A stretch of 34,147 nucleotides of DNA from Eubacteriales bacterium (GTDB taxonomy: Bacteria; Bacillota; Clostridia; Oscillospirales; CAG-272), in assembly GCA_045547015.1 (NCBI GenBank), contig JAZQDY010000212.1, positions 1 to 34,147 on the forward strand, read 5' to 3'. The first letter of the stretch is position 1; each line of letters opens with the position of its first letter. Positions 2,475-34,003 of this stretch are shown one piece after another. The translations under genes and the position numbers were made by a program. A model generated the notes under the pieces. It saw only the letters and a list, made by a program, of their open reading frames with translations, was not told the DNA's origin and did no database searches.

Positions 2475-5243
2475 ATGGCTGCAAAAAAATCGGAAACCGG
2501 AAAACAAACCGGCGGAAAAATCTACAAAAAAACGCCGGTGAAAAAAGCACCTTCGAAAAAAGGTGCCAAAGAATCGGCAAAACGGGAAAAGAAGGAATCA
2601 GCAATCAAGGCACCCGCCGGTCTTCTCGGGCAGATTCTGCCTTTTGTGGTTCTCGTAGTGGGAATCTGTTTGTGCGTTTGCCTGCTTCTCACGGATGCGG
2701 GCGTGGTGGGCAATTTTATCCGCAATACCCTTTTTGGGCTGTTTGCCGGTGCAGCATATACGCTGCCTCTGTATCTTCTTCTGGCAGCAGTTTTGTGGCG
2801 TGCAGACAAGGAAAACGGCGTTTTGCCCTGGAAAATTGTCTGCTATTCCGTAACGTTTCTGCTTACCACTATGCTGATGCATTTTCTGGCACACGGTGCG
2901 CCTACGTTCTCTGTAAAGACCCACTATACCGACGGACTTGCTCATATCGGCGGCGGTGTGGTAGGCGGCGTGCTTGGAGAATTGATGATGCGTGCTTTCC
3001 GGACGGAAGTGTCGCTGATTCTCCTGTTTGCGCTTTTGTTCCTGTTTATACTTCTGATGTTCGGTATAACGCCCCGGGGGCTGTGGATTCTTCTGGCGTA
3101 TAAGATCAAGATGTACCGGGAGAAGGTGGAGCTTTCCCGTAAGGCTTCTTTTGAAGCTGCCGAGGCTGCCAAAGAACGGGCAAAGGCGAAATCGGCTTTT
3201 GTATATCCGGAGAATGAGCAGCAGAAGCTGGTTCCCATCCCGGATACCCCGGTGAAGGGACGGCGGAATAAGCCTCTTGATATGGATCTGGATACGGATG
3301 ATGACGATGAAGAGCCGGCAACGGTGGTTGCGCCCGCAGAATCTTCTGCGCCTGCCGGTGCGGCAGACGGTACGGTGGATGAGAAAATCTTCGACGAGGT
3401 GATGCGCCGCACACAGGAGCGTCTGGCGCTGAGCGGTACGGCGGATGAAGTGCAGACTGCGGAGGAGGACGATCTCCCCTGGGATGAGACGCTTACGCCG
3501 GAACGTACATCGGCGGATATTATGGATGGGGATTCTCTCAATCGCATGGAAGAGGAAGAATTGGATCTTTCTGCCATCTTTACGGAGCCTTCCGGAGAGG
3601 ATCTGTTCAGCCGTTTTGAAAAGAATAACGACCGCGATGCCGGCGACGGCGCGGCAGATATGGATATTGAGCTGTCCGTGGAGCGGAAAACACTGACAGA
3701 GATCCGTACGCCGGCGGAACAGCCTGCTGCACTTTCTGCAGAGACGCCGGAGACTGAGCCGGAGTACCGTTTCCCGCCCATTCATCTTCTGACGGAGGAT
3801 GCCAACGTGAAGGATGAGAACGTGGCGGAGGAGCTTCGGGAAAATGCCGCCCGTCTGGTGGAGACGCTGAAAAACTTCAACGTGAGAACCAAGATTGTGG
3901 ATGTGTGCCGCGGTCCTACCATCACCCGCTACGAGCTGGCACCCGAGCCGGGCACCAAAGTGCGCTCTATTGCCAATCTGGTGGACGATATTGCGCTGAA
4001 TCTTGCCACTTCCGGCGTTCGGTTTGAACCGTCGATTCCGGGTAAATCTGCCGTGGGTATTGAGGTTCCCAACAAAAATGCCATGACGGTGCATCTCAGA
4101 ACGCTTCTGGAAAACCCGCGGTTCGGTTCATCCAAGAGCCGGCTGACGGCGGCTCTCGGCCAGGACGTTGCCGGTGCGGACGTATTCCTCGACGTGGCGA
4201 AGATGCCCCATCTGCTGATTGCCGGTGCCACCGGTCAGGGTAAATCCGTATGCATCAACAGCCTGATCGTCAGCCTTCTTTATAAGGCGAAGCCGGACGA
4301 GCTGAAGTTTATCATGGTGGACCCGAAAAAAGTGGAACTGAACATCTACAACGGCATCCCCCATTTGTATATGCCCGTAATCAGTGATCCGAAAAAAGCC
4401 GCCGGTGCGCTGTCCTGGGCAGTATCCGAAATGGAGCGCCGCTACAGCCTCATTGAGGAAGTGGGGGTGCGTGATCTGAAATCCTACAACGAGATCACAA
4501 AAGACGATCCCCAGTATGAATTTTTGCCCCAGTTTGTGATTATCATCGATGAGCTGGCGGATCTGATGATGGTGGCGAAAAACGACGTGGAGAGCCCTAT
4601 CTGCCGTATCGCGCAGAAGGCCCGCGCCGCCGGTATGCATCTGATTATCGGTACCCAGCGTCCGTCTGTGGATGTTATCACCGGTTTGATTAAGGCGAAT
4701 TTCCCCTCCCGTATTTCTTTCCGTGTGTCTCAGTTGGTGGACTCCCGTACGATCATTGACCGTGCCGGCGCGGAATCTCTCGTGGGGCGCGGTGATATGC
4801 TGTACAGCCCGGTGGGCTCTCACGAGCCTATGCGCGTGCAGGGCGCGTTCGTCTCCGACGCGGAGGTGGAGAGCGTGGTGGAATTTATCAAGCTGAACAA
4901 CGGCGGTGCCGAGTACAACTCAACCGCCATTGCCGAAGTGGAGCGGAACGCCGCTTCTATCGGTACGGGTAAGAAAGACAGTGTGGGCGGCGACGAGGAG
5001 GACGGCGGTCTGGACGATGATCCCATGCTTCGTCCCGCGATTGAGCTGGCAGTGGAAAGCGGAAAGATTTCCACCTCGCTGATTCAGCGCCGGCTGTCGC
5101 TCGGCTATGGTCGTGCCGCCAAGCTGATCGACCGGATGGAGCAGTTGGGCTACGTCAGCGCACCGGAGGGACAGAAGCCCCGTGACGTACTGATTTCAAA
5201 AGAACAGTTCATGGAAATGGTTCTCAGAGACACAGATTCGTGA
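2475..5243 (+). CDS. ftsK: DNA translocase FtsK/SpoIIIE
   Basis: N-terminal TM segments are followed by an acidic or low-complexity linker. The motor domain has Walker A (LLIAGATGQGKS) and the IIIDELADLM Walker B region. The C-terminal gamma winged helix reads STSLIQRRLSLGYGRAAKLIDRMEQLGYVS. I chose the ATG at 2475, which is preceded by GGAG at 2461-2464. Confidence 0.93.
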   Translation: MAAKKSETGKQTGGKIYKKTPVKKAPSKKGAKESAKREKKESAIKAPAGLLGQILPFVVLVVGICLCVCLLLTDAGVVGNFIRNTLFGLFAGAAYTLPLYLLLAAVLWRADKENGVLPWKIVCYSVTFLLTTMLMHFLAHGAPTFSVKTHYTDGLAHIGGGVVGGVLGELMMRAFRTEVSLILLFALLFLFILLMFGITPRGLWILLAYKIKMYREKVELSRKASFEAAEAAKERAKAKSAFVYPENEQQKLVPIPDTPVKGRRNKPLDMDLDTDDDDEEPATVVAPAESSAPAGAADGTVDEKIFDEVMRRTQERLALSGTADEVQTAEEDDLPWDETLTPERTSADIMDGDSLNRMEEEELDLSAIFTEPSGEDLFSRFEKNNDRDAGDGAADMDIELSVERKTLTEIRTPAEQPAALSAETPETEPEYRFPPIHLLTEDANVKDENVAEELRENAARLVETLKNFNVRTKIVDVCRGPTITRYELAPEPGTKVRSIANLVDDIALNLATSGVRFEPSIPGKSAVGIEVPNKNAMTVHLRTLLENPRFGSSKSRLTAALGQDVAGADVFLDVAKMPHLLIAGATGQGKSVCINSLIVSLLYKAKPDELKFIMVDPKKVELNIYNGIPHLYMPVISDPKKAAGALSWAVSEMERRYSLIEEVGVRDLKSYNEITKDDPQYEFLPQFVIIIDELADLMMVAKNDVESPICRIAQKARAAGMHLIIGTQRPSVDVITGLIKANFPSRISFRVSQLVDSRTIIDRAGAESLVGRGDMLYSPVGSHEPMRVQGAFVSDAEVESVVEFIKLNNGGAEYNSTAIAEVERNAASIGTGKKDSVGGDEEDGGLDDDPMLRPAIELAVESGKISTSLIQRRLSLGYGRAAKLIDRMEQLGYVSAPEGQKPRDVLISKEQFMEMVLRDTDS

Positions 5244-17583: not shown

Positions 17584-17612
17584 TTGACAAAAGTGTACCG
17601 CTGTGCTATAAT
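17584..17612 (+). promoter_or_regulatory. consensus sigma-70 promoter for tRNA-Val
   Basis: TTGACA (17584-17589), a 17-nt spacer, then TATAAT (17607-17612). It lies about 18 nt upstream of the tRNA 5' end. Confidence 0.6.
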
Positions 17613-17629
17613 GGATAAGCAAAATCCAC

Positions 17630-17706
17630 GGAGGCATAGCTCAGCTGGTTAGAGTACTTGCTTGACATGCAAGGGGTCACTGGTTCGATCCCAGTTGTCT
17701 CCACCA
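17630..17706 (+). tRNA. tRNA-Val (anticodon GAC), CCA encoded
   Basis: A hand-folded cloverleaf fits. The acceptor stem is GGAGGCA/TGTCTCC with one G-U pair. The D arm is GCTC..GAGT. The anticodon stem is CTTGC/GCAAG with loop TTGACAT. The T arm is ACTGG-TTCGATC-CCAGT, followed by a discriminator A and CCA. Confidence 0.9.
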
Positions 17707-17713
17707 AAAACGG

Positions 17714-17747
17714 AAAAGAGCCTGTAAATACAGGCTCTTTTGTTTTT
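17714..17747 (+). terminator. intrinsic terminator after the tRNA
   Basis: AAAGAGCCTG pairs with CAGGCTCTTT around loop TAAATA, followed by TGTTTTTG. Confidence 0.7.
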
Positions 17748-17748
17748 G

Positions 17749-17790
17749 TTTACACGATTTTTACACGATTTTGAGGCTTTACACGATTTT
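17749..17790. repeat. three direct copies of TTACACGATTTT at the tRNA/integrase junction
   Basis: The copies start at about 17750, 17761 and 17779. The third contains the integrase stop codon (AAAATCGTGTAA on the minus strand). Confidence 0.7.
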
Positions 17791-18885
17791 ATTCAGTATT
17801 GCAACGGCGCGTTCTTCTTCCCGGGGGTACAAATGGGAGTAGGTATTCCAGGTGATTTCCACTTTACTGTGACCAAGACGGCGGGCCACTTCCTGGATGC
17901 TGATTCCCTCGTTTACGAGGAGAGAGGCATGTGTGTGACGGAAATCGTGTATGCGGATATGAGGGAGTCCGGCAGCGGCGGAGTATGCTTTGTTTTTGTT
18001 TTCGATGCTGGAATCGCGGAGAACAGAGGATCCGCCGCATACGCGGTAATCTTCGGTGAAGCGGCTGTCCTTCTGTTGCCGTTGCTTGTGGGTGTGGAGG
18101 ATCTCCATCAGCGGGAGCGGGATCTGCAGATCGCGGTAGGAACTTTTATTCTTTGGCGGGGTTTCTATATCGCCGCCTTTCAGTTTCTGCGCGATGCTCC
18201 GGCGGACGTGCAGCGTGGTACCTTCGATGTCGCTCCATTTGAGGGCGTTGATCTCCCCTTTGCGCATTCCCGTGTAGAATGCAATGGAGAAGAAGACATA
18301 ATATGGCCAGTCGCCGGATTCCCGGGCGACGGCAGAAAATTCCTTGTACTGCTCGGCGGTGTAGTATTTCAATTTCTCAGCGGGCTTTTCAAAATACACG
18401 TCCTGAAACGTGCCGACAGATTTCAATGGATTGCGGCGGATGCGTTCCAGTTTTACCGCCCAGTTGAGCATGGAATTGAGTTCTTTGTACACATTCCGTT
18501 TTGTTGTGAGTGCCAGCTCCAATTCACCTACATCGTTTTTCCACTTTTGCAGGCGCTGCGGGGTGAGATGCTCCAGACGGACGGATCCGATTCGGGGAAG
18601 AATATGTGTTTCCAGCACATTTCTGGACTTATCCCACGAGGTGGCGCGGACAGACTGCTTCTTTGCGGCCATATAGTCATCATAGAGTTCCCTTACGGTA
18701 ATTCGTTCCGTGGGGGATTTTTCTTTTATATCGGAAAGGAGTTTTGCTTCCAGCTGTTTGGCGGAATCCTTACCGTAGGCGATGCGATCGAGCTGCTTTG
18801 CGTTTCCGCTTGCATCTGTGTAGTTGATACGTACTCGGTACTGCTGCAGACCGTCCTTTTTCCCGGACATTTTGTAGATCGGCAT
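17779..18885 (-). CDS. int: tyrosine-type site-specific integrase (phage integrase family)
   Basis: The arm-binding-like N-terminus reads MPIYKMSGKKDGLQQYRVRINYTD. The catalytic region reads GMRKGEINALKW...HDFRHTHASLLV...LGHSKVEITWNTYSHLY. The start is trimmed to the ATG at 18885, after AAGGAG. Confidence 0.93.
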   Translation of the reverse strand: MPIYKMSGKKDGLQQYRVRINYTDASGNAKQLDRIAYGKDSAKQLEAKLLSDIKEKSPTERITVRELYDDYMAAKKQSVRATSWDKSRNVLETHILPRIGSVRLEHLTPQRLQKWKNDVGELELALTTKRNVYKELNSMLNWAVKLERIRRNPLKSVGTFQDVYFEKPAEKLKYYTAEQYKEFSAVARESGDWPYYVFFSIAFYTGMRKGEINALKWSDIEGTTLHVRRSIAQKLKGGDIETPPKNKSSYRDLQIPLPLMEILHTHKQRQQKDSRFTEDYRVCGGSSVLRDSSIENKNKAYSAAAGLPHIRIHDFRHTHASLLVNEGISIQEVARRLGHSKVEITWNTYSHLYPREEERAVAILNKIV

Positions 18886-19009
18886 GTTGCGGCTCCTTTT
18901 TCGATAATATGTGTGTAGTTTGTCTTTGTAAATAAGGGTTTGTATTATGTATCGTTGTAATAGCGGATTTATATGAGGAAATTTGCTATTAAAAAAGTGA
19001 GTTTTTGTA

Positions 19010-19060
19010 TTGACAAAAGTTGTACGAAGTGATAAAATGTAGTATAACAAATATGTTATA
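19010..19060 (+). promoter_or_regulatory. promoter plus palindromic operator upstream of the toxin-antitoxin-chaperone operon
   Basis: TTGACA (19010-19015), a 17-nt spacer, then TAAAAT (19033-19038). The 18-bp palindrome TATAACA-AATA-TGTTATA (19043-19060) follows immediately. Confidence 0.5.
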
Positions 19061-19097
19061 TTTGAATATCATATAGAAAGAGGGGAGACGATAATCT

Positions 19098-19463
19098 TTG
19101 TACAAGGTTGAGGTATATAAAACAGCGGCAGGAAATGCCCCGGTCAAAGAATACATGCAGGACATTTTGGTAAAACGTCATGGCGTAACTGAACATGCAA
19201 AAGTTAGTTTGTTTATCGAGCGTTTAGAAGAGTACGGGCTGGAGATAAATAAACATTACCCCAGATCCATGAAATATCTTAGGGACGGAGTGTATGAGCT
19301 TCGTCCGGGTGATAACCGCGTATTGTTTTTCTATTGGAGTAGTGAAGGGTACTTCGTCCTGTTGCACTGTTTCAAAAAGAAAAGACAAACGACCCCGCCG
19401 AGAGAAATAGACCAGGCGATAAAAGAGTATAAAGATCATATAAGGAGGAACGGCAATGGCTAA
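19098..19463 (+). CDS. type II toxin, RelE/ParE superfamily, phage Gp49 / HigB-like
   Basis: The sequence MYKVEVYKTAAGNAPVKEYM...YLRDGVYELRPGDNRVLFFYW..GYFVLLHCFKKKRQTTPPREIDQA matches the Gp49-like addiction-module toxin pattern. The start is TTG. It overlaps the next gene by 8 nt. Confidence 0.85.
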   Translation: MYKVEVYKTAAGNAPVKEYMQDILVKRHGVTEHAKVSLFIERLEEYGLEINKHYPRSMKYLRDGVYELRPGDNRVLFFYWSSEGYFVLLHCFKKKRQTTPPREIDQAIKEYKDHIRRNGNG

Positions 19464-19863
19464 GTACACAGTAGATGAAATGTTTAACGAACTGAAAGAA
19501 GATCCACGTTATAGAAAACCAGTTGAGGTTTCTGCAACAGTGTGCCGCATAATTGGGGATATTTCAAAGGCACGGGTAAAGAATAACCTATCTCAAAAGG
19601 AGTTGGCAGAGCTCTGCGGAATGAAGCAGTCTGCTATCGCACGAATTGAAAATATGCACAGCATTCCAAGATTAGATACACTTGCGCGAATTGCTCATGA
19701 AGTAGGAGTAGATATTCATTCATCTGTGTGTGAAACAAAATGTGTAAGAATGCGTATAGGTGCTGTAGAGAAACAGCGTATTGAAACTGCTGCAAAACAG
19801 CAATATCTTTCAAAATCAAAGTATAAATGGCAGCTGGGAGCAGTTTGTGCTATAATCAAATAA
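19456..19863 (+). CDS. XRE-family HTH antitoxin (HigA-like) with a roughly 45-aa C-terminal extension
   Basis: The HTH reads LSQKELAELCGMKQSAIARIENMHSIPRLDTLARIAHEVGVDI. The gene is translationally coupled to the toxin. The tail after the HTH reads SSVCETKCVRMRIGAVEKQRIETAAKQQYLSKSKYKWQLGAVCAIIK. Confidence 0.85.
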   Translation: MAKYTVDEMFNELKEDPRYRKPVEVSATVCRIIGDISKARVKNNLSQKELAELCGMKQSAIARIENMHSIPRLDTLARIAHEVGVDIHSSVCETKCVRMRIGAVEKQRIETAAKQQYLSKSKYKWQLGAVCAIIK

Positions 19864-19943
19864 AGATTGACCATGTTTAATTGGTGCTATTAAATTTTTT
19901 TGGATATAATGTGTCGGTTGATTTAGAAAATTAGGAGTAATAT

Positions 19944-20342
19944 ATGAGTGTTTTTTCAAATATAGAGATAATTACTAATGAAGTTAAAATGACAAACCAT
20001 CAAATGCCTGCTGGGGAATATGAGTTAATACCTACGTTTTCACGCAAGATAGGGAGATTGGCTGGGAATAAATGCTTTACCGAATTGAGTGTTGCGATCA
20101 CCAACACCGAGGAACATCCATTTCCGATTGATCTATATGTACGCATGACCGCTGTATTTTCGATTGATAACATTCCGTCAGAAGATGTTGACAATTTCTT
20201 GGAGATCGATGGAGTGGCTATTCTATACCCATATTTACGATCACTAATTTCATCCGTTGCTGCAAGTGCTTTAATGCCGCCGCTCGTTCTTCCTGTACTT
20301 GACATGGAACTGCTTTTTGAGGATAAAGATTCAGAATCATGA
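19944..20342 (+). CDS. SecB-like chaperone
   Basis: The C-terminal two thirds, DLYVRMTAVFSIDNIPSEDVDNFLEIDGVAILYPYLRSLISSVAASALMPPLVLPVLDMELLF, align by eye to E. coli SecB [63 protein letters not shown]. The RBS is AGGAG. Confidence 0.72.
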   Translation: MSVFSNIEIITNEVKMTNHQMPAGEYELIPTFSRKIGRLAGNKCFTELSVAITNTEEHPFPIDLYVRMTAVFSIDNIPSEDVDNFLEIDGVAILYPYLRSLISSVAASALMPPLVLPVLDMELLFEDKDSES

Positions 20343-20360
20343 CACAATATTAGATTAATG

Positions 20361-20391
20361 CGCCGCCCTTGTAATGGGGCGGCGTTTTTTT
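20361..20391 (+). terminator. intrinsic terminator after the SecB-like gene
   Basis: CGCCGCCC pairs with GGGCGGCG around loop TTGTAATG, followed by TTTTTTT. Confidence 0.75.
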
Positions 20392-20441
20392 GTTGAATTT
20401 TTATGGTTGCCTTTGAAATTGAGACCGGATTTTTGGGTGGG

Positions 20442-22238
20442 TTAATTGGAAATCCATTTGTGAGCGCGCCGGAAGCCGAGGGACTCCGCTTCTGCTACGG
20501 TCATGCAGTATCCTTCGCCTTTCTTTTTATCGATAATAACGCGGTCGTACTGCTGATCGAATGGAAGATGATAAATCTTTTCACCGTTCTTGCCAATGTT
20601 ACATTTTATTTTGGGATAAGGTTTTAACGGGAGATCTTCCCGAACGGTTACATGTAATTCGCGGGCAACTGCATTGGCACACTCGGAGAGGGCAGTGGTT
20701 GTTACAAATAAAGGAATAACGGTTTCTTGTGGGTGATCTATTCGATACAGGATAGTGGATCCATAAAGTTGGAATATGTGCTTTTCGTGGATGGTCTTAT
20801 GCTTATCCCAGCGTTTGCACTGTATTACGTAAACCCTGCCGTCTTTTTTTGCAATGATGTCACGTCCCATGTCGTCGTATCCATCCAGAGCACCACGATA
20901 TTCCACGTCAAAGTCGTGGCTTTCATACACCCATCCAACGTATCGTTCGTACATAATACCGGCCTCCCAAGCGGAGCGGGCGCGTGACTCATAGCGATCC
21001 AACGCAAGCTGGTATTTCTCAACGGTGGAGAGATTGGCGTATTCGGTGGCTGAAATCCAATCCTTCAGACTGTCCCATTCGGTGTCGCCCGTTGGCTCTG
21101 CCAGCATTTCTTTGGTGGGCGGGTCAGTGATGAAATCTTCCAGCCAGGGGAAAGTGTGGGTAAGATAGGATAACTGGCTTTCAAGCATCTTTGCCTTGAA
21201 GGTGGCATCTCGCTTCTCTTTGCTGATCCGTTTTAACTCATCCTTTTTTGTGGTTCGCGGAATTGCATCAATGCGCTTATTGTCGATGGTTTTATAATAT
21301 TCCGCTATGCGTTCTGCGAGCCACGGACTGCTTTGAGAGCGGGTGTTTACGATCTTCTGTATATCAGAGCGTTCGCGGTCGATCTCGGATTTGAGCTTGG
21401 TGCATTGGGTGAGCTCGGAACGTAGTGCTTCGTGGTTGGGTAAGAGAAAAATGCCGAGTTCCAGTGCGAGGGTGTACATGTGTTTGCAAGGTTTGCCTTG
21501 GGTGTTGTATTTGAAATCGGGACAGGTACAGGAAGTGAGCGTGGTTTCGTACTCCGTGCCGTCTTTCGCTGAAATGTATTTGGCACGGGTGAGAATGTCA
21601 GAATGATGTATGCCTTCAGCGAAGGCGTGGTGCAAACGAGTGCAGTCTACATCTTTGCTCCAAGTGTATTCTGATTGGTTTTTTGGAAGGAGAGCACGGC
21701 TCAACTGTTTAGTGTTTGACACCCAGTTTTTAAGATTATTGTAATCGACAGATAATGTACGGAAATTTTCTTGTAGTTTTTGCAATTCCTGCTTGAACTC
21801 TTCGCGTTCTCTGTAAAGCGTAACATTGTGTGAAGAAAAATAATCGTTTCGGCTATTCAATCTTTGTTCAAGTTCGCTTTTGTCGGCGATGAGTAATTCT
21901 ATGCGATTAGTTAAACGAAGAATCTCAGCATTTTTTTCATCAAGAAGATACATCTGTTCTTCGATAATTCGTTTATCATCGGGTGAGCAAGGGGCTTGCT
22001 GAATAATGTTGTGGTACTCCTCAGAGTGTGTTTCACTGGCTTTAAGCAACGCATCATGCGATTTCTTTAAGGAGGAATATTCAGATTCAAGTTTACGTAC
22101 CCTTGGGGCGTCTTGCTCAAATTGTTGCAATCTCTTGTAGCCATCGTAACTTCTGGAAATCCAACAAAAAAAGGAAAATAGAAGAATTAAGCCAACAGGA
22201 AGGGAGAGCACGAAAACAATAACCATCCATTCCGGCAC
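20442..22238 (-). CDS. membrane-anchored coiled-coil protein with a SWIM zinc finger, a Mrr-like PD-(D/E)xK nuclease domain and a C-terminal sunset-like motif
   Basis: The protein is 598 aa.
- TM helix, aa 4-27: WMVIVFVLSLPVGLILLFSFFCWI.
- Heptad-rich region, about aa 35-180.
- SWIM CxCx11CxH: SCTCPDFKYNTQGKPCKHMY, aa 236-254.
- Mrr_cat-like core: YERYVGWVYE...DDMGRDIIAKKDGRVYVIQCKRW.
- C-terminus: IKCNIGKNGEKIYHLPFDQQYD...VAEAESLGFRRAHKW.
The GTG start lies 7 nt after the repressor stop. Confidence 0.8.
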   Translation of the reverse strand: MPEWMVIVFVLSLPVGLILLFSFFCWISRSYDGYKRLQQFEQDAPRVRKLESEYSSLKKSHDALLKASETHSEEYHNIIQQAPCSPDDKRIIEEQMYLLDEKNAEILRLTNRIELLIADKSELEQRLNSRNDYFSSHNVTLYREREEFKQELQKLQENFRTLSVDYNNLKNWVSNTKQLSRALLPKNQSEYTWSKDVDCTRLHHAFAEGIHHSDILTRAKYISAKDGTEYETTLTSCTCPDFKYNTQGKPCKHMYTLALELGIFLLPNHEALRSELTQCTKLKSEIDRERSDIQKIVNTRSQSSPWLAERIAEYYKTIDNKRIDAIPRTTKKDELKRISKEKRDATFKAKMLESQLSYLTHTFPWLEDFITDPPTKEMLAEPTGDTEWDSLKDWISATEYANLSTVEKYQLALDRYESRARSAWEAGIMYERYVGWVYESHDFDVEYRGALDGYDDMGRDIIAKKDGRVYVIQCKRWDKHKTIHEKHIFQLYGSTILYRIDHPQETVIPLFVTTTALSECANAVARELHVTVREDLPLKPYPKIKCNIGKNGEKIYHLPFDQQYDRVIIDKKKGEGYCMTVAEAESLGFRRAHKWISN

Positions 22239-22245
22239 AACACTC

Positions 22246-22872
22246 TCACCTTACCTTACTCAAAAATGCAACAGCCAGTCCGATGATCCGGATGTTCTTG
22301 GCGTCCTTGGCCGTGTATATCTGCGGCTTGATCGCCGGGTTCTCGGCCTGCAGGATCATGCTGTCGCCGTCACGGTACACCCGCTTCAGCGTGGCTTCGT
22401 CGTCTACGAGTACCGCCGCGATCTGTCCGTCGTCTACGTCGTCCTGCTGCTTGATATACACCAGATCGCCATCGTAGATCCGGGCACCGATCATGCTGTC
22501 ACCTTTGCAGCGGAGGCAGAAATCGGCGGTGATGTGAGAGGGAACAGTGACGGTCTGCTCCACGTTCTCCGTGGCGAGAATAGGCGTACCGCAGGCGATG
22601 TCGCCCAGCAGCGGAATCTCGTACGTCTCCGGGAGAGGGAGAATGTTTGCGGCGGCGGGGGAGTTCCTTGTGTTTGGGGAAGTTCTGCCGAGAAGAAAAT
22701 CGACGGTAACGCCGAAATGTTCAGAAATGCTTGTCAGAATTTCCATAGAAGGCATAGTTCCGGTTTCATACTTACCAACGGAGGATCGCTCTACGCCAAT
22801 GATTGTAGCGAGTTGTTCTTGCGTTAATTTGTGTCGCTTGCGAAGAGTTTTTAAATTCTCGGCGAGTGTCAT
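22246..22872 (-). CDS. CI/LexA-like phage repressor (XRE HTH plus S24 peptidase domain)
   Basis: The HTH reads MTLAENLKTLRKRHKLTQEQLATIIGVERSSVGKYETG. The S24 domain reads CKGDSMIGARIYDGDLVYIKQQ...GQIAAVLVDDEATLKRV, with the Ser/Lys dyad. The start is trimmed to the ATG at 22872. Confidence 0.9.
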   Translation of the reverse strand: MTLAENLKTLRKRHKLTQEQLATIIGVERSSVGKYETGTMPSMEILTSISEHFGVTVDFLLGRTSPNTRNSPAAANILPLPETYEIPLLGDIACGTPILATENVEQTVTVPSHITADFCLRCKGDSMIGARIYDGDLVYIKQQDDVDDGQIAAVLVDDEATLKRVYRDGDSMILQAENPAIKPQIYTAKDAKNIRIIGLAVAFLSKVR

Positions 22873-22893
22873 AATGTCACCCCTTTCGAAATA

Positions 22894-22995
22894 ATTATAG
22901 TGAATAAAATTCACTAAGTCAACATATTCTGAAAGAAATTCACAAAAACTATTGACAAGACACATGAATAGCAGTATAATGTGAATGTAATTCAG
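22894..22995. promoter_or_regulatory. divergent lysis-lysogeny switch region: two face-to-back promoters and three operator-like 15-mers
   Basis: Rightward promoter: TTGACA (22952-22957), 17 nt, TATAAT (22975-22980). Leftward promoter: TTGACT (rc of 22917-22922), 17 nt, TATAAT (rc of 22894-22899).
Operators:
- O1: GTGAATAAAATTCAC, 22900-22914
- O2: CTGAAAGAAATTCAC, 22929-22943
- O3: GTGAATGTAATTCAG, 22981-22995. Confidence 0.6.
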
Positions 22996-23026
22996 AAAAA
23001 CAAAGCAAAATGTGAAAGGAGAATGT

Positions 23027-26465: not shown

Positions 26466-26876
26466 ATGATAATCAAAAATGACAGTGAAATCGTACGTGC
26501 TGCCGTGCAGAAGATCACGGACGGCACGAAGGACGTAAAAGGCAGCAAGGAGAATCTTGTAAAAGAGGCAGTACGGGACACGCTCTGCAGCTTCTGTGAA
26601 CAGTCAGAAGAATTTGCCAGAGCTGTAACGGAAACGAGCAAATGCCTGGCTGAGTGTCTGACGGAGATCATGAAAGACGCAAAGAACGGCATTTCCGATT
26701 TTGAAGTGTACCGCCGGGCCGTTGCTTTCTTCATGGAGGACGCGGAGGTATACGCGGAGCTGCGTGTCATTCTCCCCGAAGAGGCGCACGAAACGGGCAA
26801 ATCGCCGGACGTCCGTGAAAGTGATCCGCGGCCGCGCCGTGCGGCGAAGATTCTTTCGCTGGAGGATCTTTGGTGA
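26466..26876 (+). CDS. PcfK-like protein (the family that includes anti-CRISPR AcrIIA9)
   Basis: The segment NGISDFEVYRRAVAFFMEDAEV matches the PcfK-like hallmark as I remember it (G..TDdEVY..AVHYYdEd). The size of about 136 aa fits. The gene sits directly upstream of a PcfJ-like gene, as in pCF10-type pairs. Confidence 0.55.
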   Translation: MIIKNDSEIVRAAVQKITDGTKDVKGSKENLVKEAVRDTLCSFCEQSEEFARAVTETSKCLAECLTEIMKDAKNGISDFEVYRRAVAFFMEDAEVYAELRVILPEEAHETGKSPDVRESDPRPRRAAKILSLEDLW

Positions 26877-28549
26877 TGCTGAACGAGAAAGAAGCGTTTG
26901 CTGATCTGCCGCCGCTTAGGGGAAGCACCGTGGAGGCGATGCTGGATTCATTTCCGGTGGTGCTGTGGTACAAGAGCCACAAGGACGGCAAAGAATACTG
27001 GTGCTCCCGGTGCGGGGCACATGAGCGGATCAAAAAGGTGCAGCGAACCGTCACGCCGGAAGAGAGAAAGCTGCTTTGGAGCCGGCACGGATATGAAACG
27101 GAATGCCCATCCTGCGGTCGGATGGCGAAGGTGGCGTGCATCGGCGTGGCACGCCGCCCGTATCGGTACGAGAAATCGCACTGGTTTCTCATAGTGCAGC
27201 CTGTGTCGGAGAGGGAAGTATATATGCGGGAAGTGCACGCCTGGTATGATCCGGGCATTGAGAGCGCCGACGGGCACTCGTGGGATATTTTCCCTGCCAT
27301 GCAGGTCAAATACAAGGATTGCGTGCGGTATCGCCTGACACCAGGTTCGGTGACGCAGTATGTAAACTATATATACGCCGGATGGGACGTGTCGAAAGAG
27401 CTTGTCAACCGTGTAAAAGCACCGTACCCGTGGGGGACAAACGTGTTCCGTCCCGGTACATCCACCGGCATGCTGGTGGAGGGCGATCTTGCAGACACGT
27501 TTCTGCGGTATAACTCCTACCAGAAGATCGAGGGACGGGGCGTGAGCGTACCGCTGTATCTGGCGAACTACGCACTGTATCCGACCATGGAAATGATGGT
27601 GAAATCCGGATTCGGTGATTTTGTGATCGATCTTGTGGAAAACCGAAAGAAAAACGTAGCCGTGGTGGATTGGAGAGAGACGGATCCGCGGAAAGCATTC
27701 CATCTGTCGAAAGAGAATCTTCGAAAACTGCGGGAATGCCGCGGACATCAGGTGCAGATGTTGCAGGAATATCACCGATTCCGGAAGCGGGGAGAACGGG
27801 ATCCGTGGCACTGTGCGGAGCTTACGTGGGAGTATCGGCCGTCGTACGGTGTGAAAAGAAAAGTGACGGATCATCTGAAAGAATCCGGCACGACGGAGAT
27901 CGAACTGTACAAATACCTTGAGAAGATTCACGAGCAAAATCCCGGATGCCACATGAATCCGGCACCTGCGGTGGACCGGACTTGGATGGACTACATAGAT
28001 GCCGCCGCAAAGGTCGGCTATGATCTTTCGCAGAAAGCGGTAGTCATGCCGAAGGATTTGTACGGGAAACACAATGAGGCGGTAGCTCTGCGGAACGAAC
28101 TGTTTCCGCAGCTTGGTAACGGCATCACGCCGAAAACGGTGGAACTGTTTGAAAAGCGTGCACCGAAACTGCAGCAGAAGTACGGAAAGGTCGGCGCGAA
28201 GTATTTCATCCGCATCCCGCAAACGCCGGTAGAGGTAATTGAGGAGGGACAGGCTCTCCACCACTGCGTGGGCGGATACAGTTATATATCCGGGCATGCA
28301 GCGGGGAAGAATCCGATCCTGTTCCTGCGACGTACCGATGATCCGGACACGCCGTTCTATACGATGGAGATCAACGTGCGAACGAATGAGATCATCCAGT
28401 GTGAGGGCGGCCCCAGCAAAGACGGGCACGGCCGTTGCGGCCATATACACCGGGCGGATCTTCCGCCGGAAGCCCAGGCATTTCTTGACGAATGGGAAGC
28501 TGAACGGGTGGAAAAGAAGAAAACGAAGAAGGAGACAAAAACGGCATGA
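26870..28549 (+). CDS. PcfJ-like protein with an N-terminal zinc ribbon
   Basis: The zinc ribbon is WCSRCGAH...CPSCGRM. The C-terminal PcfJ-like block is EEGQALHHCVGGYSYISGHAAGKNPILFLRR...FYTMEINVRTNEIIQCEG. Confidence 0.65.
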   Translation: MVMLNEKEAFADLPPLRGSTVEAMLDSFPVVLWYKSHKDGKEYWCSRCGAHERIKKVQRTVTPEERKLLWSRHGYETECPSCGRMAKVACIGVARRPYRYEKSHWFLIVQPVSEREVYMREVHAWYDPGIESADGHSWDIFPAMQVKYKDCVRYRLTPGSVTQYVNYIYAGWDVSKELVNRVKAPYPWGTNVFRPGTSTGMLVEGDLADTFLRYNSYQKIEGRGVSVPLYLANYALYPTMEMMVKSGFGDFVIDLVENRKKNVAVVDWRETDPRKAFHLSKENLRKLRECRGHQVQMLQEYHRFRKRGERDPWHCAELTWEYRPSYGVKRKVTDHLKESGTTEIELYKYLEKIHEQNPGCHMNPAPAVDRTWMDYIDAAAKVGYDLSQKAVVMPKDLYGKHNEAVALRNELFPQLGNGITPKTVELFEKRAPKLQQKYGKVGAKYFIRIPQTPVEVIEEGQALHHCVGGYSYISGHAAGKNPILFLRRTDDPDTPFYTMEINVRTNEIIQCEGGPSKDGHGRCGHIHRADLPPEAQAFLDEWEAERVEKKKTKKETKTA

Positions 28550-29568
28550 ACGAGATTATGGAGCACAGAAACGGCGACGTGATCGCCGCAGAAATAAACG
28601 GTATCAAACGGCAGGTGGAGAAGACGGTTCGCGGCATTATGCTTACCGGTGCCATGGAGATCGGATGCCTGCTTATAGAAGCGAAGGCAGTGGTGCCGCA
28701 CGGTGAGTGGGGTGCGTGGCTGGAAGCCAACGTGGACTACAGTCAAACCACGGCAAACGATCTGATGCGGCTGTATACGGAATATAAGGATGGGCAGGTA
28801 TCGCTGGAAAGCGGACCGACCAATGAAGAACTGTTCGGAGCCCTGGCTCCGTCCAAAGCCCTTGCCCTCCTTGCCTTGCCCAATGAGGAACGCCGTGAGT
28901 ACGTGCAGAGTCACGACGTGGAGGATATGTCCTATCGTGCACTGAAAGAAGATCTTGCACGCATGAAGGCGGAGAAGGAGGCGGCAGAAGCGGCCGCAAG
29001 GGCCGCCGATGCAGAGCGTGCTGCTGCCGAAATTCTCGCCAGTGAAGCGAACGACCGTGCAGACGAGCTTGTGGGGAAAGCGGAAGCGGCGAAGCAGGAA
29101 GCGGAGGCAAAGCTTGCCAATCTGGAAAAGCGGCGTGACGAGACAGTCAAAGTCGCCGTTGCCGCCGCACGGGAGAAACTGGAGAAGGATCTCAAAAAGA
29201 CCCGCGAAAATCTGGAGAAAGCATTGAAACGTGAATCCGAAAAGGAAAACGAGATTGCCCAGCTGAAGATGCAGATGGAGGAGACTGCTGCCGCAGAGGA
29301 AGAATCAGCCGAAGAGGATGCCGGGGAATCCGAGGAAGTGACGGCTCTCCGGGCGGAAGTGGAACGGCTGGAAAAGGCACTTCGTGCCGCCGATCCTGCT
29401 TTTCAGAAATTCGGCGCCCTGCTTGAACAGTGGCAGGGGATGTTCTATGATCTGGTGGGACTTTCCTACGCCGACGAGAATACAGAAAGCGGCGAGAAGA
29501 TGCGTGCCATCCTCGGCCGTGTGATCGAGGGCTTTGCCGGGGAGATCAAGGGAGGTGAGCATGGATGA
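28546..29568 (+). CDS. DUF3102-family protein with a long Ala/Glu-rich coiled coil
   Basis: The N-terminus EIGCLLIEAKAVVPHGEWGAWLEANVDYSQTTANDLMRLY matches the DUF3102 pattern (HGEW..WL). Confidence 0.7.
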   Translation: MNEIMEHRNGDVIAAEINGIKRQVEKTVRGIMLTGAMEIGCLLIEAKAVVPHGEWGAWLEANVDYSQTTANDLMRLYTEYKDGQVSLESGPTNEELFGALAPSKALALLALPNEERREYVQSHDVEDMSYRALKEDLARMKAEKEAAEAAARAADAERAAAEILASEANDRADELVGKAEAAKQEAEAKLANLEKRRDETVKVAVAAAREKLEKDLKKTRENLEKALKRESEKENEIAQLKMQMEETAAAEEESAEEDAGESEEVTALRAEVERLEKALRAADPAFQKFGALLEQWQGMFYDLVGLSYADENTESGEKMRAILGRVIEGFAGEIKGGEHG

Positions 29569-30203: not shown

Positions 30204-30619
30204 CCGATAACGAGATCATAAGGGCGTTGGAAAGTGCCTTGAAAACAGGGGATGAACCCATCGGAAAACATTGGGGCTGTTTTCTCACCACGGAAACCGC
30301 AAAAAACGCCCTTGACCTTATCAACCGCCAAAAGGCAGAGATTGGGCGGCTGACCACGCTTGCGGAACTTGGAAGTGTGAGATCGAATGATTACAGAGCA
30401 ATGCGTGACAAGGCAAGGAACGCGAGAGCCGAGGCAATCAAAGAGTTTGCGGAAAGAGCTGGTGTGATGATAACCGAAGTCTATAACAAGCACATTTTCG
30501 GTGCAAACGACTTGGAAGCCGAAGAAAAAGATGCCATTATAAACTTTTCCGATGATATCACCAGTGGGCTTGATGGTCTTGTAAAAGAAATGACGGAGGA
30601 GCCTGATGGCAAACTTTAA
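30200..30619 (+). CDS. hypothetical phage protein (139 aa)
   Basis: The ATG at 30200 overlaps the upstream stop. The protein starts MTDNEIIRALESALK. Confidence 0.55.
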   Translation: MTDNEIIRALESALKTGDEPIGKHWGCFLTTETAKNALDLINRQKAEIGRLTTLAELGSVRSNDYRAMRDKARNARAEAIKEFAERAGVMITEVYNKHIFGANDLEAEEKDAIINFSDDITSGLDGLVKEMTEEPDGKL

Positions 30620-31025
30620 CTTTAACAAAGTGATTCTTGCCGGACGGCTGGCAGCCGATCCGGAGCTGAAGTCCACGCCGGGCGGCGTGCCGGTGACAAC
30701 CTTCTCCATCGCCGTGAACCGTACGTACAAACCGAAGGACGGCGAGCCGCAGGCGGATTTCATAACCGTAACTGCATGGAGATCTACAGCGGAGTTCATT
30801 ACACGGTATTTCCGAAAGGCCAGCTCTATCTGCATTGTGGGCGGTCTGCAGTCCCGTTCGTGGACGGATCAGAGTGGGGCAAAGCGGTACGCCACGAAGG
30901 TGGTCGCCGATGAAGCGCACTTCGTGGATTCCAAATCGGACGGTGCCGCCGGACAGGCTGCGGCCGCGCCGCCGGTGCAGCCGCATTTTGAAGAGATCGC
31001 TTCAGATGAAGAATTACCGTTTTAA
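30606..31025 (+). CDS. ssb: single-stranded DNA-binding protein
   Basis: The OB fold reads MANFNFNKVILAGRLAADPELKSTPGGVPVTTFSIAVNR...ADFITVTAWRSTAEF. The acidic tail is DEELPF. Confidence 0.92.
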   Translation: MANFNFNKVILAGRLAADPELKSTPGGVPVTTFSIAVNRTYKPKDGEPQADFITVTAWRSTAEFITRYFRKASSICIVGGLQSRSWTDQSGAKRYATKVVADEAHFVDSKSDGAAGQAAAAPPVQPHFEEIASDEELPF

Positions 31026-32676: not shown

Positions 32677-33411
32677 ATGAAACGGGTAAAAAGACGGATA
32701 TTTTCCGGCACCGTCTGTGAGCAGATCGTACATAACGTATCCGATCGGGCGGATGTGAAGAAGGCAAAACCGCGGATTCGGTTCAAGGACGAAGCGGATC
32801 GTGCGGCACACCGGGACATGATCGCTCGGAAAAGAAATGCACGTCTAATCAATGCGAACTACGGTCCGTCCTCCTTATACAGCACTCTTACGTTTGATGA
32901 TGAACACGAACTGCATTATTTCAGTGATGCGAAGCGTATCCGGACACGATGGAGAAAAAAGCTGCAGAAGGAATACCCGAGTGCAAAGATATATATCGTG
33001 ATGGGGCGCGGAAAGAGTACGAGCCGGATCCATTTCCATATGATTTCCGATGGGATCCCGGCTTCGGTGATCCGGCAGTTGTGGGAATACGGAGACGTCG
33101 TCGAATGCAAGCCGCTCCGGAAACACAACCGATACAACGGGGTGGATCATGGAACGGATTACACAGGCCTTGCAAACTATCTCTTTGATCACTGGACGGA
33201 GGAACAGGGCGGCCACCGTTATATGGCTACCAAAAACCACGTGAAGCCGGAGGCGGAAGCTCCGGTGGAAGTGAAGAGAGAATACACGGAAGAACATGCG
33301 CCTGCCGCGCCCAAGGGATACAAACTGGTGGAAGCGAAAGCGACGCCATTCGGATATATCTATTATAAGTACATACTTGATCCTGACGTAGATTTAGATT
33401 CAATAGAATAA
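32677..33411 (+). CDS. HUH-motif protein, possible rolling-circle Rep or relaxase-like endonuclease
   Basis: Three motifs appear in the order expected for HUH endonucleases: YSTLTFDDE (motif I-like), RIHFHMISD (HUH), and DYTGLANYLFDH (Tyr motif III-like). The call rests on motifs only. Confidence 0.5.
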   Translation: MKRVKRRIFSGTVCEQIVHNVSDRADVKKAKPRIRFKDEADRAAHRDMIARKRNARLINANYGPSSLYSTLTFDDEHELHYFSDAKRIRTRWRKKLQKEYPSAKIYIVMGRGKSTSRIHFHMISDGIPASVIRQLWEYGDVVECKPLRKHNRYNGVDHGTDYTGLANYLFDHWTEEQGGHRYMATKNHVKPEAEAPVEVKREYTEEHAPAAPKGYKLVEAKATPFGYIYYKYILDPDVDLDSIE

Positions 33412-33640: not shown

Positions 33641-34003
33641 ATGGAAAAGGTGACAAGGCGTGATCTGGAGAACTATGCGGGTGTAGTGAAAGAGCTGGAG
33701 GACGTTCGGCGGCGTCGGTCCGCAGCGGAAGCGAAGGCTAAGCAATCGGCCCGGCCGGAGGATGCGGAGAGGGCGTGCCGGGAGGCTGCATTGTTCGATG
33801 CGGTGGCGGACTGGCTGGAGGAAGAACGCCTGCGGATCGAAAGTGCACTCACATCGGTGACAGATTCACGTGCGAGAGAGGCCATGCGTATGCGATACTA
33901 CGACGGAAAGAGCGATGTGGAGATCGGCGTGCGTCTGCACTATTCGGACAGATCCGTGCGGCGTCTGATCGACAATGCAATAATGGTGCTTGAGAAGGGG
34001 TGA
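33641..34003 (+). CDS. sigma-70 region-4-like / phage late transcriptional activator-like protein
   Basis: The C-terminus AREAMRMRYYDGKSDVEIGVRLHYSDRSVRRLIDNAIMVL is a region-4-type HTH. Its position is typical of the gene preceding packaging genes. Confidence 0.65.
   Translation: MEKVTRRDLENYAGVVKELEDVRRRRSAAEAKAKQSARPEDAERACREAALFDAVADWLEEERLRIESALTSVTDSRAREAMRMRYYDGKSDVEIGVRLHYSDRSVRRLIDNAIMVLEKG

Follow-up and report, generated by a model that had tools for sequence, protein, structure and literature searches.

Toxin-antitoxin-chaperone (TAC) systems built on HigBA, MqsRA, and HicAB units were defined and tested by Bordes et al. (PMC5105189), and the structure of a chaperone in complex with the chaperone addiction (ChAD) segment of an antitoxin has been solved (PMC6377645). 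Two TACs carried by prophages of E. coli, HigBAC and CmdTAC, defend the host against phage, a structural protein of the phage competing with the ChAD for the chaperone (bioRxiv 10.1101/2024.02.24.581848; PMC11618068). For HigBAC of strain NT1F31, which is located next to cI on a lambdoid prophage, the protein sensed is gpV of lambda (bioRxiv 10.1101/2024.02.24.581848), and for CmdTAC it is the T4 capsid protein (PMC11618068). TACs have been reported earlier in seven phyla, including a firmicute, and solitary SecB in Firmicutes was reported at the same time (PMC3581621). Here, a three-gene locus at positions 19,098 to 20,342 of contig JAZQDY010000212.1 (34,147 nt, analyzed as a whole and called the window) is compared with these systems. 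The locus is probably a HigBAC-type TAC operon; it forms a low-G+C accessory cassette adjacent to the integrase gene of a phage-like element that is integrated in an Oscillospiraceae-like host. As far as sequence and predicted structure can show, none of the defining features of a HigBA-type TAC is missing.

The arrangement is like that of E. coli NT1F31 HigBAC (Mets et al., 2024), in which HigB is followed by a helix-turn-helix (HTH) HigA with a disordered, aromatic ChAD and then by a SecB-like chaperone. In both cases, the genes are found on an integrated element, in a variable region near a cI-type repressor gene. The ChAD of E. coli HigBAC comprises 96 residues with four aromatic motifs spaced ∼30 residues apart, whereas the corresponding tail here has ∼40 residues and one clear aromatic/basic patch. 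The two hosts belong to different phyla, and an 80-nt spacer precedes the chaperone gene at the present locus. This likeness is one of description, and the defense and trigger shown for the E. coli system would apply here by analogy.

As the preliminary description of this DNA had pointed out, the gene order is also that of M. tuberculosis HigB1-HigA1-SecB(TA) (Rv1955–1957). The two systems have in common a ChAD of similar length, the SecB fold of the chaperone, and a short segment that reads L-P-P-L in M. tuberculosis and M-P-P-L here. The key contacts of the M. tuberculosis ChAD, W108, R110, and Y114, are aromatic and basic (PMC5105189, PMC6377645, PMC9098466). Sequence similarity is nevertheless very low, with a marginal match between the toxins (E = 0.3) and 15%–17% identity between the chaperones. 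An additional N-terminal helix and an insertion of 12–14 residues in the β3-β4 loop distinguish the M. tuberculosis chaperone (PMC6377645) from the compact protein here. At its C terminus, the tail of M. tuberculosis HigA1 has a Val-Ala ClpXP degron and that of CmdA has AA; the tail here ends in AIIK.

Among solved structures, the nearest relatives of the toxin and of the antitoxin core are those of S. pneumoniae HigBA (6af3/6af4), which has the same key RNase residues but is a two-gene system with a tailless antitoxin of 97 aa and no linked chaperone. CmdTAC/PD-T4-9 (PMC9519451, PMC11618068) resembles the locus in its SecB-like chaperone, to which a match was obtained, and in its logic, the chaperone guarding an unstable antitoxin. 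Its toxin, an mRNA ADP-ribosyltransferase, and its antitoxin, which is cleared by ClpP, are unrelated to those described here. The differences from known TACs are of degree: a compact chaperone, a short tail with one patch, no obvious degron, a spacer, and a Clostridia host.

The three-gene operon and its products

Inspection of the sequence and of the list of open reading frames (ORFs) places three co-oriented genes on the + strand, bracketed by one promoter and one terminator. The features of the locus are:

19010–19038, + strand: near-consensus operon promoter, TTGACA-17 nt-TAAAAT, the −10 hexamer being extended by TG; agreement with the consensus at 11 of 12 positions
19043–19060, no strand: perfect inverted repeat TATAACA-N4-TGTTATA just 3′ of the −10 hexamer; candidate operator for the HTH antitoxin
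19098–19463, + strand: toxin gene, 121 aa; Gp49/HigB family, RelE superfamily; TTG start, 10 nt after the ribosome-binding site GAGGGGAG
19456–19863, + strand: antitoxin gene, 135 aa; HigA-type XRE HTH core and C-terminal extension; 8-nt overlap with the toxin gene
19732–19860, + strand: antitoxin tail, residues 93–135; putative ChAD with the patch YLSKSKYKW at 117–125 and a hydrophobic C terminus, GAVCAIIK
19864–19943, + strand: antitoxin-chaperone spacer, 80 nt; holds the chaperone ribosome-binding site AGGAG at 19932–19936
19944–20342, + strand: chaperone gene, 132 aa; SecB-like by Pfam, PADLOC, and AlphaFold/Foldseek
20360–20395, + strand: intrinsic terminator ending the operon; 10-pair stem with 8 G-C pairs, 6-nt loop, then TTTTTTTGTTG; stem and T run at 20360–20385

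By sequence, this is the layout expected of a TAC, a single operon that starts with the toxin gene and continues with those for the antitoxin and the SecB-like chaperone. The preliminary description had read the locus as three co-directional genes behind one promoter and before one strong terminator, the first encoding a RelE-superfamily Gp49/HigB-like toxin and the second an XRE antitoxin that overlaps the first by 8 nt and carries a tail after its HTH. This reading stands: the ORFs, the overlap, and both signals are present, the tail measures ∼40 aa, and the toxin assignment is borne out by the comparisons that follow.

The toxin scores 53 bits against Pfam Gp49 (PF05973; cut-off 23.9, E = 3.5e-14) and gives a full-length match to S. 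pneumoniae HigB (6af3; E = 9e-17), with both proteins aligned from residue 1. S. pneumoniae HigB is an active RNase in vitro, and mutagenesis singled out R68, R73, F90, and K92 (PMC7984235). These residues align with R69, R74, F92, and K94 of the toxin, and E66 aligns with E67. The TTG start codon of the toxin gene is supported by the alignment from the first residue of HigB and by an identical TTG in two of the relatives listed below, L001 and L006. On these matches, the toxin is a putative mRNA endonuclease of the Gp49/HigB type, closest to a solved and enzymatically active HigB. With the toxin gene first, a HigB/Gp49 toxin of the RelE superfamily, and an XRE HTH antitoxin, the pair has the composition predicted for a HigBA-type unit.

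Residues 36–87 of the antitoxin match Pfam HTH_3 with 55 bits (cut-off 23, E = 7.6e-15), and residues 30–85 match the same residues of the 97-aa S. pneumoniae HigA (E = 6.5e-6). AlphaFold models the HTH core (about residues 27–83) with a predicted local distance difference test (pLDDT) of 88–96, and residues 98–135 with values below 50 (about 40) and no secondary structure. The best aromatic-plus-basic, non-acidic 9-mer of the whole antitoxin, YLSKSKYKW, falls within this tail. SecB prefers to bind aromatic and basic stretches (PMC6377645), and aromatic residues are recognition determinants in both ChADs studied so far (PMC6377645; bioRxiv 10.1101/2024.02.24.581848). By analogy with these, the tail is a putative ChAD that may bind the chaperone and make the antitoxin dependent on it.

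Residues 47–129 of the third protein match Pfam SecB (PF02556) with 46.3 bits against a cut-off of 26. A profile built from 42 relatives matched the SecB chains of H. influenzae (E = 3.6e-12) and E. coli (E = 1.5e-9) over nearly the full length, and the same profile gave E = 0.024 with M. tuberculosis Rv1957 (SecB-TA). The AlphaFold model (mean pLDDT 78.5; predicted template-modeling score, pTM, 0.73) consists of four antiparallel strands, a long helix (79–108), and a short C-terminal helix. When this model was compared with the PDB by Foldseek, the top matches were all SecB, among them E. coli SecB (1qyn), with a template-modeling (TM) score of 0.77–0.79, and H. influenzae SecB (1fx3). The TM score to M. 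tuberculosis SecB-TA with its ChAD peptide (5mtw) was 0.68, which places the 132-aa chaperone nearer to E. coli SecB. By sequence and predicted fold, the third protein belongs to the SecB family, as does the chaperone of a TAC. An alignment to E. coli SecB had been made by eye in the preliminary description; HMMER comparisons with the E. coli and H. influenzae chains gave the same result, and two of the checks proposed there, a search against PF02556 and a structural comparison, returned a score above the cut-off and a SecB fold.

The chaperone also matches the PADLOC model PD-T4-9_C, the third gene of the anti-phage system PD-T4-9 (E = 4e-14), which we take to be CmdC of CmdTAC. It scores below all NCBIfam SecB equivalog cut-offs (best model 47.6 versus 143; TIGR00809 41.5 versus 102.8) and is for this reason regarded as a diverged SecB-like protein and not an export chaperone. 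A housekeeping export SecB was rejected on these far too low scores and on the position of the gene in a low-G+C cassette, 3′ of a toxin-antitoxin (TA) pair. The segment M111-P112-P113-L114 aligns with L154-P155-P156-L157 of the M. tuberculosis chaperone once a 3-residue offset of the PDB tag is allowed for. The latter residues contact ChAD residue Y114, and mutating them impairs TA control (PMC6377645). The M-P-P-L segment fits a TAC role but does not discriminate, because it is fairly conserved in solitary SecB as well.

Related modules and conserved signals

The same three-gene order was found in six other diverged loci, a Gp49 gene coming first in every case in which the contig extends far enough, and because of this recurrence the arrangement is not a chance juxtaposition. 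Identity to the six modules is 33%–71% for the toxins (where these are on the contig), about 36%–85% for the antitoxins, and 32%–79% for the chaperones. The relatives used for comparison are:

L001, L002: Logan contigs; antitoxin and chaperone 74%–85% identical, toxin about 70%
L003/L004, L005: antitoxin 36%–42% identical; SecB gene overlaps the antitoxin gene or starts 2 nt later
L006 (Izemoplasmatales metagenome-assembled genome, MAG), L014 (Acholeplasmatales MAG): distant Gp49-XRE-SecB modules
Streptococcus satellite phage Javan160, Monoglobales phage CHVD 5762, human faecal phage contig MT835942: two-gene relatives

In the four more distant modules, the antitoxin and chaperone genes overlap or lie at most 11 nt apart. 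All seven modules with SecB encode antitoxins of 135–139 aa with a tail of 41–45 aa after the HTH core; the ChAD of M. tuberculosis HigA1 has 42–46 aa (PMC5105189). The tails of the distant modules cannot be aligned with one another, and each is richer in aromatic residues than its own core. The antitoxins of the phage-borne two-gene toxin relatives (98, 92, and 93 aa) have no tail and no downstream SecB in three cases out of three, and S. pneumoniae HigA is likewise tailless. The tail therefore co-occurs with the chaperone gene, being present in seven of seven modules with SecB and absent from the two-gene relatives. Such a C-terminal extension, absent from chaperone-independent homologs, is a defining feature of TAC antitoxins. 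The earlier proposal of a ChAD-like tail accords with this distribution and with the predicted disorder. Short HTH relatives (P0022, P0030, and P0038) also have no SecB gene downstream; they are weak controls because they come from other operon types, and the three phage Gp49-XRE pairs are better ones.

Among the three close relatives (the present locus, L001, and L002), the tail has evolved much faster than the HTH core. Its identity to L001 and L002 is 64% and 51%, respectively, compared with 96% and 91% for the core. The diverged tails nonetheless retain the K-Y-[KR]-W patch and the C-terminal GA[VI]CAIIK.

A Shine-Dalgarno sequence is found at the proper distance before each gene: GAGGGGAG for the toxin, AGGAGG for the antitoxin, and AGGAG for the chaperone. 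Both promoter hexamers are kept in L001 despite the divergence of the flanking DNA, and the block 19042–19073 is near-identical there, the DNA around it having diverged. S. pneumoniae HigA and HigBA bind palindromes of their own promoter (PMC7984235). This precedent, together with the conserved promoter/repeat block, makes the palindrome at 19043–19060 a good operator candidate, through which the antitoxin may autoregulate the operon. Similarity to L001 and L002 stops at about 20394.

The spacer between the antitoxin and chaperone genes measures 65 and 106 nt in the two close relatives L001 and L002, compared with 80 nt here. Possible internal promoters for the chaperone gene had been noted in this gap. 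The strings exist as described (TTGACC at 19867–19872, TTAAAT at 19890–19895, and TATAAT at 19905–19910), but in the alignment with L001 and L002 conservation is confined to the ribosome-binding site and the start region. A deletion in L001 has removed the TTGACC region, and TATAAT is not conserved. The strings lie in A+T-rich DNA, in which promoter-like matches are common; 13 were found, compared with 5.7 ± 3.2 in shuffles. Internal promoters were rejected as unsupported, given this lack of conservation in close relatives. No credible terminator was found within the 80-nt gap. Since the strings are unconserved and the spacer contains no terminator, the operon is read from its sequence as one transcription unit, an internal promoter being possible but unsupported. 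In the L002 spacer (597–660), a short unit resembling TGTTTTGATT(T/C)GTAT is duplicated in tandem. The duplication accounts for the longer spacer of this relative (106 versus 65–80 nt) and indicates that the spacer is evolving by insertions and deletions.

Two of the distant modules have neighbors of other kinds. In L003 (6218–6562), the module lies beside a NikA/MobC-type relaxosome gene, and in L006 (3372–3710), beside a MazE-family antitoxin gene. Such modules thus travel on mobilizable elements and in TA islands, and not only on phage-like elements.

The host element and neighboring genes

The G+C content of the cassette is 37%, compared with 50%–56% on either side. From promoter to terminator, the block has 79% nucleotide identity to L001, whose integrase is 63% identical at the protein level and whose downstream genes are unrelated. 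The cassette is common to L001 and L002, and its downstream neighbors differ. The drop in G+C content and the sharing of the cassette with L001 amid unrelated downstream genes suggest that it is a mobile accessory unit.

A tRNA-Val gene (GAC) at 17630–17706 was the sole match in an Rfam search of the window. Directly after it comes a gene for a tyrosine integrase, on the − strand (17779 to about 18885). The pair likely marks the attachment site of the element, the other end of which lies beyond the window. The gene order is tRNA-Val, integrase, cassette, a convergent gene for a 598-aa protein, a cI-type repressor gene, and a series of rightward genes. The last encode PcfK-like, PcfJ-like, and DUF3102 proteins (within 26466–29568), SSB (30606–31025), a replication initiator (32677–33411), and a sigma-70 region 4 protein (33641–34003). 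The families in this series, PcfJ/PcfK-like proteins among them, typify phage-plasmids and conjugative elements no less than phages. The element may accordingly be a prophage, a satellite, or an integrative and conjugative element. No phage structural genes were found inside the 34,147-nt window, past which the element extends, and a megablast search of 17600–23000 against phage records gave no match. The preliminary description had placed the module in a prophage accessory slot beside the integrase. The integrase, the cI-type repressor, SSB, and the replication initiator agree with this placement; the lack of structural genes in the window and the PcfJ/PcfK-like genes call for caution. The element is phage-like, and a prophage is plausible but unproven. 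On the chromosomal side, an FtsK protein is 90%–94% identical to sequences from Ruminococcaceae/Oscillospiraceae MAGs. By this protein the host is Oscillospiraceae-like, consistent with the Clostridia-type host proposed earlier.

The product of the convergent gene next to the cassette (20442–22238, − strand) is 598 aa long. It begins with a hydrophobic segment, has a long coiled-coil-like middle and a SWIM zinc finger (residues 234–260), and carries an Mrr-type restriction-endonuclease domain in its C-terminal part (429–527). The GTG start of the gene lies 7 nt past the stop codon of the gene for a cI-like repressor with HTH and S24 domains (22246–22965), and because of this spacing it is probably co-transcribed with the repressor in the lysogen. 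Co-transcription with the cI-like repressor is the position of rexAB in lambda. The protein has no PADLOC or PHROG match and is absent from L001 and L002. By analogy, the gene is a candidate exclusion or defense gene of unassigned type.

Proposed mechanism, alternatives, and the wider SecB-like family

That the first protein is toxic, that the antitoxin depends on the chaperone, that the palindrome mediates repression, and what the trigger is are all inferred here from the characterized systems. One sigma-70-type promoter would drive the three genes, and the antitoxin, alone or with the toxin, would probably repress it via TATAACA-N4-TGTTATA. Free HigB/Gp49 toxin would cut mRNA and stop translation; the folded HTH domain of the HigA antitoxin would bind and neutralize it. 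The disordered tail of ∼40 residues would render the antitoxin unstable or aggregation-prone unless the SecB-like chaperone, probably a tetramer, grips the tail in its client-binding groove. The toxin would stay inhibited for as long as the chaperone is free for tail binding. Analogous to E. coli HigBAC and CmdTAC, the most likely trigger would be an abundant protein of an infecting phage that competes for the chaperone. Titration of the chaperone would lead to loss of the antitoxin, the toxin would halt translation, and the infection would be aborted. Both the defensive role and the trigger are thus proposed by analogy with the two E. coli systems.

Several observations weigh against a TAC at this locus. 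The chaperone gene is 80 nt away from the antitoxin gene, in contrast to the tight coupling seen in other TACs. Solitary members of the same Bacillota subfamily of SecB-like genes are also found in conserved chromosomal contexts, and the presence of the chaperone gene by itself is therefore no proof of a TAC role. The tail has no recognizable ClpXP-type C-terminal degron, and its predicted disorder comes from an alignment in which only about five sequences cover the tail. An ordinary HigBA pair beside an independent solitary SecB-like gene, with its own promoter, other clients, and no chaperone addiction, would account for the gap with its promoter-like strings and for the many solitary genes of the subfamily in Bacillota chromosomes, and it would agree with a rough neighbor-joining tree, made without support values, in which TAC-linked and solitary chaperones are interleaved. 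It is nevertheless unlikely. The gene order is common to seven diverged modules, four of which have a chaperone gene that overlaps the antitoxin gene or is separated from it by no more than 11 nt. The occurrence of the tail coincides exactly with that of SecB, the two-gene relatives having neither, and the strings in the gap are unconserved and partly deleted in L001, with no terminator between the genes. It is very improbable that the tail is a folded second domain, such as a ribbon-helix-helix (RHH) or NikA-like DNA-binding domain or an extra toxin-binding element, instead of a disordered tag. The Pfam NikA-like match that points this way (residues 94–123, E = 0.0099) reaches 16.4 bits and so falls far short of the 27 bits set as the cut-off for the family. 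On visual inspection, VRMRIGAVEKQRIETAAKQQ looks like the strand and helix with which an RHH domain begins, but the close relatives have helix-breaking changes (EKPRIIVAAG and EKPCVIVTTG), the tails of the other modules are unalignable, and AlphaFold predicts no secondary structure. The NikA-like/RHH reading was rejected on these grounds: a match below the cut-off, an unconserved stretch, and predicted disorder.

With the TAC mechanism itself retained, the role may still be another than phage defense, either stabilization of the element by post-segregational or post-excision killing or a response to stress. The cassette lies beside the integrase at the edge of the element, relatives are found near mobilization genes (NikA/MobC in L003) and another antitoxin gene (MazE in L006), and plasmid and island TACs have been discussed as addiction systems, the M. 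tuberculosis TAC being induced by stress (PMC3581621). This alternative is rather doubtful, though it deserves consideration: both TACs with an established role are prophage-borne and defensive (bioRxiv 10.1101/2024.02.24.581848; PMC11618068), and the adjoining SWIM and Mrr-type nuclease gene, apparently co-transcribed with the cI-like repressor gene, resembles a lysogen-expressed exclusion locus. Moreover, stabilization and defense are mutually compatible.

For the reading as a defensive TAC, a more specific proposal can be made tentatively. The locus might be an anti-phage sensor in uncultured gut Oscillospiraceae, with a chaperone that was recruited from the solitary SecB-like genes of Bacillota, guards the ChAD of ∼40 aa via the single K-Y-[KR]-W patch, and is titrated by a structural protein of an invading phage with a similar aromatic and basic motif. 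If so, the chaperone-as-sensor principle, shown so far only in E. coli, would reach Gram-positive anaerobes, and a much shorter recognition element would be defined. The understanding of TAC systems is unchanged by the locus, the class being already defined and experimentally understood. What the locus adds is a clear TAC example from Clostridia, on a mobile element and with a tail of ∼40 residues, for which two close and four distant relatives were recovered. It could serve as a compact model for ChAD sufficiency, and it flags candidate defense cargo for the annotation of prophages in gut Clostridia.

A word-indexed protein search returned only two close relatives of the chaperone. An exhaustive profile search recovered 980 chaperone clusters (at 50% identity) with E ≤ 1e-3, 129 of them with E ≤ 1e-10, and nearly all proteins in the 980 clusters have about 130 aa. 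A tblastn search of the chaperone against phage and plasmid records gave no match; PHROG families exist for all three proteins of the cassette. Species-representative genomes were scanned with a single LYPYL-containing pattern, which yielded 19 loci, all from Bacillota; because one pattern was used, the sample is biased and no frequencies can be derived from it. Two of the 19 are TAC-type, and in the others the SecB-like gene is solitary in a conserved chromosomal neighborhood.

Solitary SecB-like genes lie just upstream of FabZ/FabH-like ORFs, as identified from ORF translations, in Borkfalkia-like and other Clostridia MAGs. The SecB-like ORF ends near locus position 4340–4370 in L009, L010, L017, and L019–L023. 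Further solitary loci are L011–L013, L015, L016, and L018, and the hosts are without an outer membrane. In Acholeplasma/Paracholeplasma, the solitary SecB-like gene has an aminopeptidase gene on one side and a pair of chromate-transporter genes on the other.

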